Part shown: positions 34,073-43,946 of the stretch, one piece after another
Layout: each line of letters begins with the position of its first letter
How positions within the stretch are numbered: position 1 is the stretch's first letter
NCBI GenBank assembly: GCA_004796365.1
Contig: QZLE01000201.1
Span: 1-59,929, forward strand
Direction of reading: 5' to 3'
From: Gammaproteobacteria bacterium
GTDB taxonomy: Bacteria > Pseudomonadota > Gammaproteobacteria > QZLD01
Length of the DNA stretch: 59,929 nucleotides
Made by a program: the position numbers and the translations under genes
Notes under the pieces: model-generated
Told to the model about the DNA's origin: nothing
Databases searched by the model: none
Seen by the model: the letters and a program-made list of their open reading frames with translations, nothing else

Positions 34073-37171
<3,099 letters not shown>

Positions 37172-37318: not shown

Positions 37319-40300
37319 ATGAAAAATAACTTATTATCTTTTTTTAATGGACAAACGACCAAGGCAGTAGCTCTATCAACTGCCCTTTTGATTTCCGGTG
37401 GAGCATTTGCTGCCGATAACCTTATTCCTAGAATCCCAGTTAACCCTGCAAAATACCAAGTACTAGACGGTGTGGAATATACGTCCATTACCGTAAAGTT
37501 TAAAGAACTAACTGGTATTAGATTAGGCAGTTCTGGCCTTTTCAGTAAAATCAGCAATCCTGAAATGCCAGCCAGTCTAAATTTGGACTGGACTGGATTC
37601 GATTCAGAACTTATTAATTTACAGAGTTTAGTTGCTTCTCAAGGTCTAAATCTGACTAAATCATCTCCTTTCTCGGATGAAAAACTTGCCGAGCTAAAGA
37701 AGAAAGCTGAAGAGAGATCTGGCAAAGAACTTGCTGACATGGGGCTATACTTTAAACTGCCTATACCTAAAGGTTTCAGCACAGAACAAATTAAAGCATT
37801 AGTAGACTCCCTGAATAGTTTTACAACTGTTGAGGCAGCATTTGCTAAACCGCCAGCAGTACCTGCTGCAATCACTCCAGACTTCCAGGATTACAATCCT
37901 GCCAACACCTACTATCAAGGTTACCTGGATGCTCCAACACCAGGGGATAACGATGCATATGACGGTATTAACGCCAAATATGCCTGGAATTTCAGCGGTG
38001 GCCGTGGTGAAGGTGTTAACATTATCGACGTTGAGGGTGGTTGGACAACTTCCCATGAAGACTTTCCCGTTTTAGCATTCAGTTATGACACATCAGAAAA
38101 CAGTTCTGGATGGATCGATCATGGAACTGCTGTGGTTGGTGTTATTGCTGCTCAAGACAACGGATTTGGTGTTACAGGTATTGCTAATCAAGCAAATATT
38201 GGGCTTTCCAACATTTACGGTGATAGCTATGTAGATGGAAACGGTGACACTAGAACTGGTACAGATGCAGCAATTCTGCGAGCAGCTGATATGGCAGGTG
38301 AAGGCGGCGTAATTCTAATTGAGGTTCACAGAAAAGGCCCAACACTTCAAGAAACTTGTGCATGTAATAATGGGCAATGTAACTACATCGCTGTTGAATA
38401 CTGGAGTGATGACTACGAAGCAATAGAAATTGCAACTGCACTAGGTGTAACTGTCGTAGAAGCTGCGGGTAACGGAAGCGCCAATTTTGATGATCCAATT
38501 TATGGCGGCGCATTTGACCGCAACCAAAAAGACTCTGGGGCAATTATTGTTGGCGCTAGCCGTTCTAAAAACAGTGACCCAATGTGCTGGACTAACTATG
38601 GTTCACGTATTGATGTTCGCGGCTGGGGTGAAATGGTTGCCACCCTGGGTTACGGAGAGATGTATAAAAATTCAGCTGACTCAAGTAATCAAGATTACTG
38701 GTACACTGGCACCTTCAGTGGTACATCTTCAGCTGCTCCAATCGTAACTGGTGCTGCAGCAGTTCTTCAAGGTATTTCGGAAAATGTTTATGGCACAACT
38801 CTTTCTCCAATGCAAATCAGAGATATTCTAAGCACCAACGGAACAGAACAAGATATCGACCTTGAAAAAAATATTGGTTTGCTTCCCGATCTAATGAAGG
38901 CTATAGCCACAATTAATTCATCTCATGGATTCGTGTGCAATGACTTTACATCAACAGTTGCTGATCATGAAACCGCTGGCCGCGCATATAGCGAAACTGT
39001 AACTGAAGGAGAAACTTGTTGGGGTACATTCTGCTACGGTGGAACACAGGTAACTACTTGGTATACTGCAGGTTCGAATATTGAACTAGGAACTGATAAC
39101 TCTATCACTAATACTCTACATGAAGGTGTTCAAGGCGAATTTGCAATCGGTAATTGCCCATCTATTGGGAATATAGAACCAACAAATTCAGCACCAGTTC
39201 TTATTCTTAACGGCAACGACCCAATGACAATTTATGTTGGTGAAACTTTTGTCGATCCTGGTGCAACTGCTTCAGATTCAGAAGATGGTGATCTTACTTC
39301 AGAGATTGTTACAACAGGCTATGTTGATTCAAACACCATTGATACATACACACTAACTTATACCGCTACAGACTCTGGTGGCTTATCAGATACCAAAACC
39401 AGAACTGTAAATGTTATTGCAATTCCTACATGTCAGGAGTTTACTGATACTGTTTCCAACCACGAAACTGCTGGCCGTGCATACTCAGTAACAGAAACAA
39501 CCGGTCAAACATGTTGGGGTACATTCTGCTACGGTGGAACAACCACTACAACATGGTACGCGGAAGGTTCTGACGAAAATCTTGGCACTAACGGTAACGC
39601 AACTGTTACTCTTAGAACCAACGAAGGTGGATACATCACCGGTAACTGCCCTTCTGACCCAGTTGCACCTGTATTAGTATCTTACCAGGTAGCTTCAAAT
39701 ACCAATGTACAGGCAGTTATCACTGGTACTGCATCTGATGCAGATGGCGACATCGATCGCGTAGTGCTTGGCCTTGGAGCAGTTACTGGCATCGTATGTG
39801 AAGGCACAACAAGCTTTACCTGTACCCTTGACTGGGATGCAAACGGCTTTGACACTGGAGCAGAAATATCTCTATCAGTTTCTGCATGGGACTCAAGAAA
39901 CGAAGTTTCAAATATTGAGCACTTCACACTTACACGCCCAGAACAGCAGCCTGGATCAGCTCCGGTAATCTCGAACCTCGATTATACTGTTGATGGGCAG
40001 AACATGGTTGTTACTGCTGATGTAACAGATATAGACGGAGATCTATATGCAATTAGATTAATGTATGCAGATCAACCAGGAGAATTACATTGTGACAATT
40101 CCGGTGGCTATCAATATACATGTAATCTAACTAACCATGACGTAGGAGCATTCAACTTTAAGGTTCACGCTATTGATAGCGAAGGTAACGCAGCAGAAAC
40201 AGCTCCATTTACAGTTGAGTTTGTCGAAAAGGTCGAAACAACCTGTTTCACCACCGTTAACAGCGACCACGTAAGTGCTGGCCGTGCAGAACTAAAATAC

Positions 40301-40414
40301 AACGTTCTTATCTATGCAATCGGTTCTGGCGATTATCTTGGTATGAGTAGTGATACTACATCACTGGAAGAAACTTCTGCAGGTATATGGACCAAAGTAA
40401 CAAGCTGTGACTAA
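37319..40414 (+). CDS. Secreted S8 (subtilase) serine protease with propeptide, three PHB-depolymerase-SBD-like modules, one DUF5011-type and two other Ig-like domains
   Basis: Catalytic triad IIDVEGG (D at 38027), DHGTAV (H at 38120), GTSSAAP (S at 38726); AAGNG oxyanion hole; signal peptide ...AFA. The ORF track starts at GTG 37307; ATG 37319 is more likely. Confidence 0.88.
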   Translation: MKNNLLSFFNGQTTKAVALSTALLISGGAFAADNLIPRIPVNPAKYQVLDGVEYTSITVKFKELTGIRLGSSGLFSKISNPEMPASLNLDWTGFDSELINLQSLVASQGLNLTKSSPFSDEKLAELKKKAEERSGKELADMGLYFKLPIPKGFSTEQIKALVDSLNSFTTVEAAFAKPPAVPAAITPDFQDYNPANTYYQGYLDAPTPGDNDAYDGINAKYAWNFSGGRGEGVNIIDVEGGWTTSHEDFPVLAFSYDTSENSSGWIDHGTAVVGVIAAQDNGFGVTGIANQANIGLSNIYGDSYVDGNGDTRTGTDAAILRAADMAGEGGVILIEVHRKGPTLQETCACNNGQCNYIAVEYWSDDYEAIEIATALGVTVVEAAGNGSANFDDPIYGGAFDRNQKDSGAIIVGASRSKNSDPMCWTNYGSRIDVRGWGEMVATLGYGEMYKNSADSSNQDYWYTGTFSGTSSAAPIVTGAAAVLQGISENVYGTTLSPMQIRDILSTNGTEQDIDLEKNIGLLPDLMKAIATINSSHGFVCNDFTSTVADHETAGRAYSETVTEGETCWGTFCYGGTQVTTWYTAGSNIELGTDNSITNTLHEGVQGEFAIGNCPSIGNIEPTNSAPVLILNGNDPMTIYVGETFVDPGATASDSEDGDLTSEIVTTGYVDSNTIDTYTLTYTATDSGGLSDTKTRTVNVIAIPTCQEFTDTVSNHETAGRAYSVTETTGQTCWGTFCYGGTTTTTWYAEGSDENLGTNGNATVTLRTNEGGYITGNCPSDPVAPVLVSYQVASNTNVQAVITGTASDADGDIDRVVLGLGAVTGIVCEGTTSFTCTLDWDANGFDTGAEISLSVSAWDSRNEVSNIEHFTLTRPEQQPGSAPVISNLDYTVDGQNMVVTADVTDIDGDLYAIRLMYADQPGELHCDNSGGYQYTCNLTNHDVGAFNFKVHAIDSEGNAAETAPFTVEFVEKVETTCFTTVNSDHVSAGRAELKYNVLIYAIGSGDYLGMSSDTTSLEETSAGIWTKVTSCD

Positions 40415-40481
40415 ATTAGTATTGAATAAATAATATTGGGTTACGCCCCTCTAACCCAGCTTACAATACTTTTAAACAAAC

Positions 40482-40799: not shown

Positions 40800-43700
40800 A
40801 TGAGAAGATCATCTTTTGCTAAGAAATTTAGCCTTGCTGCTTCGTTTGTATTATCCACTTTTAATTATTCACATTCCTTTGCGTACGAACTGCCGGAAAA
40901 CACTCTGAAATGGGAAGTTATTCCAAGTGCAATCCGTGCTGATGGCAACGACTCATTTGTTATTGAAGTCTATTCTCCCCAAACAGTAAGCACCATACAG
41001 CTTAATAAAATGCCAACAGACATTAATGACGGCGATTATGTTAAGCCAAAGAGTGGCTACTTTTTCACCAGCATCGCACTAAAAGATGATGGTACAGGAG
41101 CTGACCGCATTGCCGGCGATAGTATCTATACCGCAGGCCCTTTTGTTTATGACACCAGTAAAGCATTCCCGGTAGATGGCTTTGAGGGTGTTGAAGGAAT
41201 ATTCAATGACGCAATAGGTGATCTTCAGGTTACCTTTACCGATAACCAATACACCTACTCTTCAAACGGAATCTTCGTTCGTGTTGGTCTGGTTAGAGAT
41301 GATATTGAAAACGTTGAAACTACTGAACTAAGCGATAATATTCAAGCATCTCCATATGTTATAAATATGGTAGATGACAACTATGCATCTGAGCGTAGAA
41401 TGCGCAAAATGTATGAATACTCTTCCCACCAAGCAGGCCTGGATCAAACCTCTGAACTCTATTCAGTTTTAGAAGATGACTTTGACCAAATCCTTATTTT
41501 CTCAACCACAACGCTAAATGATATTTCTCAAAGTCCAAAGACCTCAATCAAAGGTATGCACTACAATGTCAGAAATGATATCGAAGGGATAGGGTTAAAT
41601 ATTTATGACAGCACTGCTTCATACGGTTCTAACGGAATCCTACAGGGAATTAGTTATTTCTCACACGGGCGCCTTGACTCAGATCTAGTAATCCATGAAA
41701 TTACTCATCAGTGGGAAGCCTTTCTTGATTCTCCAATTGAAGGAGTTGAAATAACAGACGGTGGAGGACACTGGAACTCATTTGTAAACTGGCATTCATA
41801 CTATGATTGGGTCGAAAATGTTGATGGAACTTTTACAAAAAAATGCCGTTACTCTGAAGGTTGGCGCAACCCTTTGGACAAGAAATTCCTTAAATATGTC
41901 ATGGGGTATTCATATTACACGGACATAACAGAAGATCTTCGTGTCGTTGATAGGAATGACAGTGCAGGCGACTTTATGTGTGATAAAACTATCACTAAAA
42001 CCATCCATAATTTCACCATGGAAGATATTATCGCTGTAAACGGAATCAGAACTCCTGGTCCAGAAAATGCGCAGCGCGATTTCAAAGCTGCGGTTGTTTT
42101 CTCAACAGCAAACCGTAAATTTAACGCTACTGAAATGACTTTCGCATCAATCTACGCTCAAAACATTGGCACAATAGTTGGCGATGCACTATTCGGCAGC
42201 ACATGGACAACTGCTCTACCGGCATTCCCAGATACAACTCCACCTGTTATCACTCTAAATGGTGCACAAGAGATCAATGTAATCCTTGATTCAGAGTTTG
42301 TAGATCCTGGCGCTGTAGCAATTGATAATGTAGATGGAAACATCTCTGGGCAAATTATTACCGTAGGTGACGTAGATACCACAACAACTGGCGAATACAC
42401 AATTACCTATAATGTTAGCGATTCAAGTGGTAATGCTGCCGAAGAAGTTACAAGAACAGTAATAGTTAGCGAAGAACCTTTATGCGATGAATTTACAGCA
42501 ACGAACTTAGAGCACGAAAATGCTGGCCGCGCATACAGCGAAACCAAAACCGAAGGCCAAACCTGTTGGGGTACTTTCTGTTACGGAGGTACTGAAGTAA
42601 CAACATGGTACGCAAGTGGTTCAGACGAGAACCTAGGTACCAACGGCTCTGCTTCTGTAACTCTTCATGAAGAAACTCAAGGAGTTTGGAAGACTGGTGT
42701 TTGCCCTGGTCCAGACGTAACTGCCCCAGTTATTACAATAGCTGGTGACAACCCAATGACTGTTTTTCAGAGTTCAAACTTCACAGATCCTGGCGCTACT
42801 GCAGAAGACAACATTGATGGCGACGTAACTGCAGATATCGTAGTAACTGGCTATGTTGACACTAACACTATCGGTTCATATGAACTGGTTTATACAGTAT
42901 CCGATGCTGCAGGTAATGAAGCTTCTGAAATTAGAACTGTAAACGTTGTTGCAATACCCGCATGTCAGGAATTCACTAGTACTTTATCCAGCCACGAATC
43001 TGCTGGACGCGCATACTCTATAACTGAAACAACAGGTCAAACTTGTTGGGGAACATTCTGCTACGGCGGTACAACTACCACAACATGGTACGCGGAAGGG
43101 TCTGATGAAAACCTTGGCACAAACGGTAGCGCTACTGTTACTCTTAGAACCAGCGCAAACGGTTACATTACCGGAAATTGCCCAACCGATCCACAACCTC
43201 CGGTAATTGAGTCTTATGAGGTTGCAGAGCACACTTATCTTAGAGTAGTTGTAACCGGTACTGCTTCAGACCCGGATGGCGATATCGACCGTGTAGTACT
43301 TGGCCTGGGAGCTGCAACTGGCATCTACTGTGAAGGCACAACAAGCTTTACCTGTACTCTTGATTGGGATGCATACGGCTTTGAAGTCGGCGCAGAAGTA
43401 TCTCTGTCGGTTTCAGCTTGGGACTCTCGCGAAGCAGTATCAAATATTGAGACCTTCCTTCTTACCAGACCAGAGAAACAGGATTCTGTTCCTCCAGTAA
43501 TCAGCAATATTCAGCAAACCAGAGAAGGTACAGTGGAAATTGTTACTGTTGATATCACGGATGTGGACGGCGACCTTGCCGGAGCCTTCCTTTACAGAAT
43601 CGATGATATCGGGCGTGTTGATTGTTACAACACAAGCGGTTCTCAGTATAGATGTGAGATGCAGCTTCAGGGCGCAAGCTATGCCACAATGACCTGGAAA

Positions 43701-43946
43701 GTCAGAGCATACGATCACGCTGAAAACGTAACTGATTCTTCTGAGTTCACAGTAGTATGGGAAGAACAAGCTTCATGCTTCACTGCTGCGAACAGCGACC
43801 ACATTAATGCTGGACGTGCAGAGCTGAGATATAACATTCTGGCTTATGCTATCGGTTCTGGCGACTATCTTGGAATGAGCGGGGATACTACATCACTGGA
43901 AGAAACATCTGACGATGTTTGGACCAAGGTTACAAGCTGTAACTAA
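40800..43946 (+). CDS. Secreted HExxH metallopeptidase-like protein with choice-of-anchor-X-like motif, two DUF5011-type Ig domains, three PHB-SBD-like modules and two further Ig-like domains
   Basis: Signal peptide; LKDDGTGADRIAGDSIYT; VIHEITHQW (41694-41708) followed by GGGHW; C-terminal half homologous to that of the S8 protease. Confidence 0.8.
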   Translation: MRRSSFAKKFSLAASFVLSTFNYSHSFAYELPENTLKWEVIPSAIRADGNDSFVIEVYSPQTVSTIQLNKMPTDINDGDYVKPKSGYFFTSIALKDDGTGADRIAGDSIYTAGPFVYDTSKAFPVDGFEGVEGIFNDAIGDLQVTFTDNQYTYSSNGIFVRVGLVRDDIENVETTELSDNIQASPYVINMVDDNYASERRMRKMYEYSSHQAGLDQTSELYSVLEDDFDQILIFSTTTLNDISQSPKTSIKGMHYNVRNDIEGIGLNIYDSTASYGSNGILQGISYFSHGRLDSDLVIHEITHQWEAFLDSPIEGVEITDGGGHWNSFVNWHSYYDWVENVDGTFTKKCRYSEGWRNPLDKKFLKYVMGYSYYTDITEDLRVVDRNDSAGDFMCDKTITKTIHNFTMEDIIAVNGIRTPGPENAQRDFKAAVVFSTANRKFNATEMTFASIYAQNIGTIVGDALFGSTWTTALPAFPDTTPPVITLNGAQEINVILDSEFVDPGAVAIDNVDGNISGQIITVGDVDTTTTGEYTITYNVSDSSGNAAEEVTRTVIVSEEPLCDEFTATNLEHENAGRAYSETKTEGQTCWGTFCYGGTEVTTWYASGSDENLGTNGSASVTLHEETQGVWKTGVCPGPDVTAPVITIAGDNPMTVFQSSNFTDPGATAEDNIDGDVTADIVVTGYVDTNTIGSYELVYTVSDAAGNEASEIRTVNVVAIPACQEFTSTLSSHESAGRAYSITETTGQTCWGTFCYGGTTTTTWYAEGSDENLGTNGSATVTLRTSANGYITGNCPTDPQPPVIESYEVAEHTYLRVVVTGTASDPDGDIDRVVLGLGAATGIYCEGTTSFTCTLDWDAYGFEVGAEVSLSVSAWDSREAVSNIETFLLTRPEKQDSVPPVISNIQQTREGTVEIVTVDITDVDGDLAGAFLYRIDDIGRVDCYNTSGSQYRCEMQLQGASYATMTWKVRAYDHAENVTDSSEFTVVWEEQASCFTAANSDHINAGRAELRYNILAYAIGSGDYLGMSGDTTSLEETSDDVWTKVTSCN

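Follow-up and report, generated by a model that had tools for sequence, protein, structure and literature searches.

The window analysed here is a 59,929-nucleotide stretch of DNA (contig QZLE01000201.1) from a 2.77-Mb metagenome-assembled genome (MAG), 83% complete, of an uncultured marine gammaproteobacterium. On its forward strand, it carries a gene for a secreted, multidomain protease of peptidase family S8 (subtilases), in the tail of which we find three modules that we assign to the family of the substrate-binding domain (SBD) of extracellular polyhydroxybutyrate (PHB) depolymerases. Translated from ATG 37319, the product has 1031 residues, and from the alternative GTG 37307 it has 1035. 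The ATG is the likely start, since an identical 1031-residue product is already recorded in that form in a protein collection (P0001). All coordinates below are those of the whole window, and residue numbers are counted from the GTG. The features of the gene are the following.

37319..40414, + strand: gene of the secreted multidomain S8 subtilase (open reading frame (ORF) list; Pfam Peptidase_S8 and Bact_surface_Ig-like)
37319..37411, + strand: putative signal peptide MKNNLLSFFNGQTTKAVALSTALLISGGAFA, then ADN (by-eye reading of the translation)
37967..38842, + strand: S8 subtilase catalytic domain, divergent (Pfam PF00082, NCBIfam, alignments with solved subtilases)
38936..39160, + strand: module L1, long-variant SBD, residues 544-618, CNDFTSTVADHETAGRAY...GNCP (translation, profile match)
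39206..39415, + strand: immunoglobulin (Ig)-like spacer, Bact_surface_Ig-like, residues 634-703 (Pfam PF16403, PDB match)
39431..39652, + strand: module L2, long-variant SBD, residues 709-782, CQEFTDTVSNHETAGRAY...GNCP (translation, profile match, AlphaFold2)
39653..40243, + strand: two more Ig-like repeats with a Cys pair in each, residues 783-979 (weak Big_9; conserved in related tails)
40244..40411, + strand: module S3, short-variant SBD at the extreme C-terminus, residues 980-1035, CFTTVNSDHVSAGRAELKY...TSCD (profile match, BLASTP, AlphaFold2)

An earlier note on this DNA, made by reading the letters, had placed three related modules at 38936-39160, 39431-39652 and 40244-40411 behind an S8 protease; these segments translate exactly as it claimed and all lie in one ORF. 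The protease part of the claim also holds. The head matches PF00082 over residues 261-512 with 61.5 bits, against a cut-off of 21.8, and an NCBIfam model of the mycosin type over residues 223-508. Asp241 (codon 38027-38029), His272 (38120-38122), the oxyanion Asn389 (38471-38473) and Ser474 (38726-38728) fall on the four catalytic positions of the solved subtilases 7y6m, 8ehe and 7xr8, so that the protein has the Asp-His-Ser order and the oxyanion Asn that characterise family S8. The putative signal peptide, as read by eye, has a hydrophobic core and an AFA-A cleavage-type motif. Judging from these residues the protease head looks active, though it is a divergent S8: it scores 61 bits, while the eight S8 paralogues of the genome score about 200 bits each. 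Pfam and NCBIfam give no match to an Esterase_PHB or NF050058-type catalytic domain anywhere in the protein. With an S8 domain present and no Esterase_PHB match, we rejected the identification of the whole enzyme as a PHB depolymerase (PhaZ); on these domain matches, only the binding modules belong to the PHB-depolymerase system.

The tail, of about 490 residues, is laid out as L, Ig, L, Ig, Ig, S, where L and S are the long and short forms of the module. The first spacer is a clear Bact_surface_Ig-like domain (PF16403, 80.2 bits against a cut-off of 27; sequence match to PDB entry 2kpn, E 1.9e-10), and the match of residues 885-963 to Big_9 is weak (E 4.4e-4, under the Pfam cut-off). L1 and L2 are 60% identical (BLASTP, E 1e-25). 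The pairwise match of S3 to L2 is weak and limited to the motif region (BLASTP, E 0.002). The profiles of the short (A1) and long (A6) forms, built from window-lineage sequences, align over their whole length (hhalign, 98.1%, E 8.6e-14). At the profile level, the two forms are clearly homologous, and by these comparisons the repetition of the module goes far beyond chance. The sole real difference between them in the alignment is an insert of about 18 residues, TxGxTCWGTFCxGGT, with an extra Cys pair; in L1 it reads TEGETCWGTFCYGGTQVT. Intermediate forms exist in the same genome, for example one with a Trp-rich, Cys-free insert (...TKTSGWWWYATTTWY...).

The first and last Cys, the His, and the AGRA, GS...LG and T.L elements are present in each of the three modules. 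Conserved His, Arg and Cys residues are reported to define the SBD family (Jendrossek and Handrick 2002). AlphaFold2 models both forms with high confidence (pLDDT 97.8 and pTM 0.83 for the short form, pLDDT 94.8 and pTM 0.77 for module L2), in agreement with the compact, independently folding domain of about 40-60 residues that is expected of this family. The two models have the same strand order and one short helix, and the long form adds or lengthens strands over the insert.

The relation to depolymerases was evaluated with a reference profile (A5) of 30 SBDs taken from proteins of named genomes that have an Esterase_PHB catalytic domain, including that of Paucimonas lemoignei DSM 7445. Both the short-form profile (hhalign, 99.2%, E 1.6e-19) and the long-form profile (97.4%, E 9e-12) match it. 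Reciprocally, when the genome's own ORFs are searched with a hidden Markov model (HMM) built from depolymerase SBDs only, the S8 ORF is found at E 2e-14, along with 25 other ORFs. Module S3 is 38% identical to the SBD of P. lemoignei PhaZ (BLASTP, E 2e-8); the identity of the window modules to classical SBDs is only about 35-40%.

A sample from named genomes was obtained by scanning the GTDB species genomes for a degenerate DNA pattern encoding N-Y-x-H-V-x-A-G-R-A, which gave 120 loci. The HMM of the window lineage matches 120 ORFs in these loci and, in 103 of the 120, Esterase_PHB lies upstream of a C-terminal SBD; the other module-positive ORFs are mostly short fragments, many of which end at the edge of the locus. 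In the locus of P. lemoignei DSM 7445, an ORF of 458 residues has the motifs LHGCAQT and GLSSGG, a linker rich in Thr and, at its C-terminus, CYTSSNYAHVTAGRAHNSSGYALANGSNQNMGLNNTFYTSTLKQTSPGYYVIGTCP. It scores 201 bits with the NCBIfam model NF050058 ("extracellular catalytic domain type 1 scl-PHA depolymerase"), above the cut-off of 150. A Thr-rich linker is a reported feature of the P. lemoignei depolymerases, and the SBD of PHB depolymerases adsorbs to several polyesters without the need of the catalytic domain (PMC11893044). We regard it as established, on the strength of these profile comparisons, that the modules belong to the SBD family of extracellular short-chain-length PHB depolymerases, as the earlier note had proposed; the depolymerase sequence that it quoted closely resembles one that occurs in Trinickia, VCTETTATNYAHVQAGRAHDSGGIAYANGSNQSMGLDNVFYSNTLAQTSAGYYVIGNCP.

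The alignment of the module family (A3) splits into two subtypes, C-x-[ED]-[FY]-T...G-x-C-P and C-[FVIY]-T...K-V-[ST]-S-C. The long modules of the window are of the first subtype (C-x-[ED]-[FY]-T), and the terminal module S3 is of the second (C-[FVIY]-T). Two SBD types are distinguished in the review literature (PMC11893044), and it may be that the two subtypes correspond to these SBD1 and SBD2 types.

On the contrary, the family name given in the earlier note, PF06850, is incorrect: with hmmscan at E up to 10, the modules match neither PF06850 nor any other family of Pfam or NCBIfam. PF06850 (PHB_depo_C) is a different domain, which shares only a name with the SBD, both being labelled as C-terminal regions of PHB depolymerases; it goes with PhaC-like or intracellular alpha/beta-hydrolase-type proteins, and in a relative of the source organism it matched a PhaC_N/Abhydrolase protein. 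The SBD of P. lemoignei has no Pfam match either, and the missing Pfam matches of our modules are uninformative, because Pfam lacks a model even for the classical SBD. No PDB sequence matches the module profile, and Foldseek finds nothing significant for the confident module model (best E 2.5 in the PDB and 1.7 among the viral models of BFVD). The lack of a fold neighbour in the PDB agrees with the lack of SBD-like sequences among PDB chains. This SBD is thus represented by no model in Pfam or NCBIfam and by no structure in the PDB, and its predicted structure may correspond to an unsolved small fold.

In public data, an exhaustive HMMER search of 1.84 billion representative proteins for the short-module profile retrieves 427 clusters at E up to 1e-3. 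Esterase_PHB is the commonest catalytic partner according to Pfam (12 of the 54 hits of 760 residues or less), and about 20 of the 165 proteins that we collected bear Esterase_PHB with the module, detected with our own HMM, on its C-terminal side. Of the 150 best representative clusters, at least 25 combine S8 with the module; these are all metagenomic or from unannotated MAGs, and either devoid of annotation or called "hypothetical protein". The other partners include beta-lactamase-fold hydrolases, M6 peptidases, M12 reprolysin/metzincin peptidases, papain-like C1 and legumain-like C13 peptidases, and SASA domains. The remark of the earlier note that the module is known from esterases and not from proteases is correct for the literature and wrong for the databases. 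In the literature that could be searched here, we found no paper on natural proteases with a PHB-depolymerase SBD, and the SBD fusions that are described are engineered ones (PMC11835289). In sequence collections, the combination is by no means unique. We also observed in the representative library a protein of 5013 residues (P0019) in which positions 29-53 of the module profile are matched 40 separate times; its repeat looks as if it were built from the second half of the module only.

The source genome itself has at least 24 ORFs that bear the module, and nine of them, including the protein of the window, are S8 subtilases. According to Pfam, the others include an M6-like metalloprotease, a beta-lactamase-fold hydrolase, a type-1 PHB depolymerase (ORF C62) and several proteins without a recognised catalytic domain. 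The relatives of its RecA are found in Gammaproteobacteria, the nearest named ones being about 86% identical (Neptuniibacter, Oleiphilus, Zooshikella, Pseudomonas). Genomes of the genus have 19-33 module matches each and the sister genus has 11, against none for 26 other families of the class. In an even sample of 298 further genomes of the class, matches are limited to 3 genomes, with 1-4 in each. The module is expanded 10-fold or more, specifically in this bacterial family. The last module stands at the very C-terminus of about 20 proteins per genome, and there are also modules directly behind signal peptides and at internal positions (C101, C164, C10, C166, C128). In one public protein (P0016, 955 residues) and on contig C122 of the genome itself (L143), a long-variant module (CAEHTSTLDDHVYHNRAS...CWGTFCYGG...GSCP) apparently lies inside an alpha/beta-hydrolase-like N-terminal catalytic region, where it precedes the GHSAGG nucleophile elbow; two further modules follow downstream in the protein.

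The same genome contains 13 ORFs with a full-length match to the Esterase_PHB domain, about 11 of which keep the lipase-box serine. About 11 esterases of the PHB-depolymerase family is a large number for a genome of about 3 Mb. The contigs that carry these intact ORFs include C32, C43, C68, C73, C78, C85, C138, C19, C9 and C168, and most of the ORFs also keep the LHGC oxyanion motif.

The genes on either side of the S8 gene are relevant to the history of its tail.

40800..43946, + strand: gene of a secreted protein of 1048 residues with the HExxH motif HEITHQWE and the same tail (ORF list, translation)
42483-42707, 42963-43184 and 43776-43943, + strand: the modules of this neighbour (translation)
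34073..37171, + strand: gene of an upstream protein of 1032 residues with an Esterase_PHB-type N-terminal domain and no SBD module (Pfam, NCBIfam)

The S8 tail shares 63% identity with the tail of the adjacent HExxH protein, over 495 residues, and 50% identity with that of ORF C62 (L138), over 419 residues. ORF C62 passes NF050058 with 258.8 bits for a cut-off of 150 and is a genuine type-1 PHB depolymerase. The region of two Ig-like repeats, 39653..40243, is conserved in both of these tails. One and the same tail is thus present on an S8 protease, an HExxH metalloprotease and a PHB depolymerase, and therefore, as far as these alignments can tell, it has clearly been exchanged among catalytic heads in this lineage. 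The HExxH neighbour matches no catalytic family of Pfam; its N-terminal 550 residues or so may represent an undescribed family of metalloproteases, and orthologues exist (for example P0008, 1047 residues).

Considering these observations together, we propose that the tail tethers an active protease to surfaces of polyhydroxyalkanoate (PHA) or other polyesters, and that the protease digests the proteins present there; we think that this is probably the case, with a good deal of room left for other explanations. The SBDs would adsorb to the hydrophobic surface of particles of PHA (the PHB type of polyester) as those of PHB depolymerases do, and the three copies, separated by flexible Ig-like spacers, would make the binding multivalent. 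The protease would then be concentrated on the particle and digest the proteins that cover it, the candidate substrates being the protein coat of native PHB granules from dead cells and the protein films on polyester debris. By digesting these proteins, the enzyme would supply the cell with nutrients and make the polyester accessible to the many PHB-depolymerase-family esterases of the organism. We infer both the target bound by the modules and the substrate that is cleaved. Adsorption is reported to matter when subtilisins attack a polyester (PMC11178483).

Several observations weigh against this proposal. The module is present on only one of the 13 ORFs with an Esterase_PHB domain (C62), against nine proteases, which would be odd if its purpose were PHB hydrolysis alone. 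The order of the genes is not kept in a related genome, in which those for the S8 protease, the metalloprotease and the esterase do not lie next to each other. The variants of the window are distinct subtypes, as distant from classical SBDs as the identity of about 35-40% indicates, and the long form has an insert, so that their specificity may have drifted. Last, the spread of the module over unrelated enzymes fits a general role of sticking to particles equally well.

This last point leads to the strongest alternative, in which the module is an SBD homologue that has been retargeted to general adhesion to another insoluble substrate in the marine environment, such as chitin, the cell walls of algae or bacteria, marine snow or hydrophobic organic particles. 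The proteases would then be ordinary particle-attached scavengers with no special link to PHB. The presence of the module on many unrelated hydrolases and its absence from most Esterase_PHB enzymes of the genome speak for such a change, as do the divergence of the window subtypes and the gain of the insert in the long form; the binding of SBDs is broad among polyesters in any case (PMC11893044). On the contrary, the very same tail is found on the only genuine type-1 PHB depolymerase of the genome to possess a binding tail, and Esterase_PHB is, worldwide, the commonest catalytic partner among the shorter hits that were scanned. The core residues (N..H..AGRA, A.GS...LG, T.L.ET and the terminal Cys) have all been kept, and the genome is unusually rich in esterases of the PHB-depolymerase family. 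We consider that retargeting is unlikely, while giving it serious weight.

A second alternative is that the S8 head itself cleaves the ester bonds of a polyester on which it is docked by the SBD tail, in the manner of proteinase K and subtilases on polylactide. Subtilisins depolymerise poly-L-lactic acid, and adsorption is important in this process (PMC11178483), and the layout of the protein mirrors the succession of catalytic domain, linker and SBD in PHB depolymerases (PMC11893044). The divergence of the head, with its 61 bits against about 200 for the other eight, could be read in the same sense. Polylactide, however, is not a natural substrate, and we know of no S8 enzyme that hydrolyses polyesters of (R)-3-hydroxybutyrate. 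Besides, the same tail is found on metalloproteases and cysteine peptidases, which points to protein substrates, and the genome already has many dedicated esterases. We find this alternative very improbable.

It may also be asked whether the terminal short module is a lineage-specific tag for sorting, secretion or retention at the cell surface, since it forms the last residues of about 20 proteins per genome and is restricted to, and expanded in, one family within the class. We reject this as the principal explanation because N-terminal copies (behind signal peptides) and internal copies of the module exist. The SBD of classical PHB depolymerases is likewise C-terminal, the module is a folded, disulfide-bounded domain of 56 residues (pLDDT 97.8) homologous to a demonstrated binder, and we saw no dedicated sorting enzyme beside these genes, all of which makes such a tag very improbable.

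The resemblance to the SBD could, finally, be a chance motif match in Cys-rich, low-complexity spacers, as the weak BLASTP match of S3 to L2 and the lack of Pfam, NCBIfam and PDB hits might suggest, but this is practically ruled out by the hhalign matches (99.2% and 97.4%), the reciprocal retrieval by the depolymerase-only HMM at E 2e-14, the 427 clusters and the confident AlphaFold models.

Beyond the tethering of one protease to PHA, we tentatively extend the proposal to the whole family, with a confidence that is clearly lower. In this small marine family, the SBD may serve as a general address label that sends the secreted enzymes bearing it, 20-30 in each genome, to storage-polyester granules; they comprise nine subtilases together with metalloproteases, cysteine peptidases, hydrolases of the beta-lactamase fold and a genuine PHB depolymerase. 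They would constitute a non-covalent, "granule-stripping" secretome with which the native PHA granules of dead or lysed cells are taken apart, the coat first and the polyester next. This would be a way of foraging on a major marine carbon reserve that has not yet been described.

Compared to the SBD of PhaZ from Paucimonas lemoignei and Alcaligenes faecalis/Ralstonia pickettii T1, the modules of the window have in common a length of about 56-60 residues bounded by Cys, the blocks N-x-x-H-[VI]-x-A-G-R-A, A-x-G-S-x-x-x-[LM]-G and T-x-L-x-[EQ]-T, and a C-terminal position behind linker domains; multiple copies also occur among depolymerase-type hits. They differ in being carried by an S8 protease, in three copies with Ig-like domains between them, and in that two of them have the insert of about 18 residues, which we saw in none of the 30 depolymerase SBDs. 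The protein also resembles the multidomain secreted S8 subtilases that have PPC, PKD, Ig-like or carbohydrate-binding modules: like them, it has a signal peptide, an Asp/His/Ser head and small beta-rich tail domains, which are presumed to keep the enzyme on insoluble substrates. Unlike in those enzymes, the binding module here is a polyester-depolymerase SBD, which is not reported on proteases in the papers that could be searched. The nearest parallel to the arrangement is artificial: SBDs have been fused to cutinases and lytic polysaccharide monooxygenases (PMC11835289), that is, a polyester-binding module has been placed on a foreign catalytic domain via a linker. Here, in contrast, the genes are natural: proteases and other hydrolases bear as many as three modules each, and one family has 20-30 such genes per genome. 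What we would consider new is the occurrence of a known binding domain on new catalytic partners, the insert-bearing subtype and the lineage-specific expansion.

For some 30 years, the SBD has been studied as an appendage of one class of enzymes, and it has been used as a plastic-binding tag. In nature, however, it is a promiscuous module, which is found on proteases and on at least six other types of hydrolases. Work on extracellular depolymerases has mostly used denatured polymer free of protein; should the modules bind PHA as expected, these proteins suggest a bacterial route to native, protein-coated PHA granules, a step that is poorly understood. Tandem SBDs with Ig-like spacers would also be natural templates for engineering enzymes against polyester plastics, and a curated domain model made from our alignments would annotate hundreds of "hypothetical" metagenomic proteins.

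Some observations on the surroundings of the S8 gene may be added. The upstream protein, 34073..37171, matches PF10503 with 28.4 bits and NF050058 with 96.9 bits, which is under the cut-off of 150. Its lipase box reads GLGAGG, the nucleophilic Ser having been replaced. Further features of this protein are thrombospondin type-3 repeats, a stretch rich in Pro and Glu, and a hydrophobic anchor at the C-terminus, GGGGAPNAFILLFCLLSLLITKRKH. In another esterase-like ORF of the genome (contig C2), the lipase box is GFGAGG. The PhaC_N/Abhydrolase protein with a PF06850 match mentioned above is encoded in the related genome GCA_033852075.1 (L149, 16006-17145), 3 kb away from the gene that is orthologous to that of the neighbouring metalloprotease; it may be that the lineage also makes or mobilises its own PHA. 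Scanning for promoters and terminators gave nothing above chance. Last, we note a GC-rich hairpin at 40437-40458, about 20 nucleotides past the stop codon of the S8 gene, which may be a terminator; the scan reported it on the minus strand only, with counts that are not above chance.

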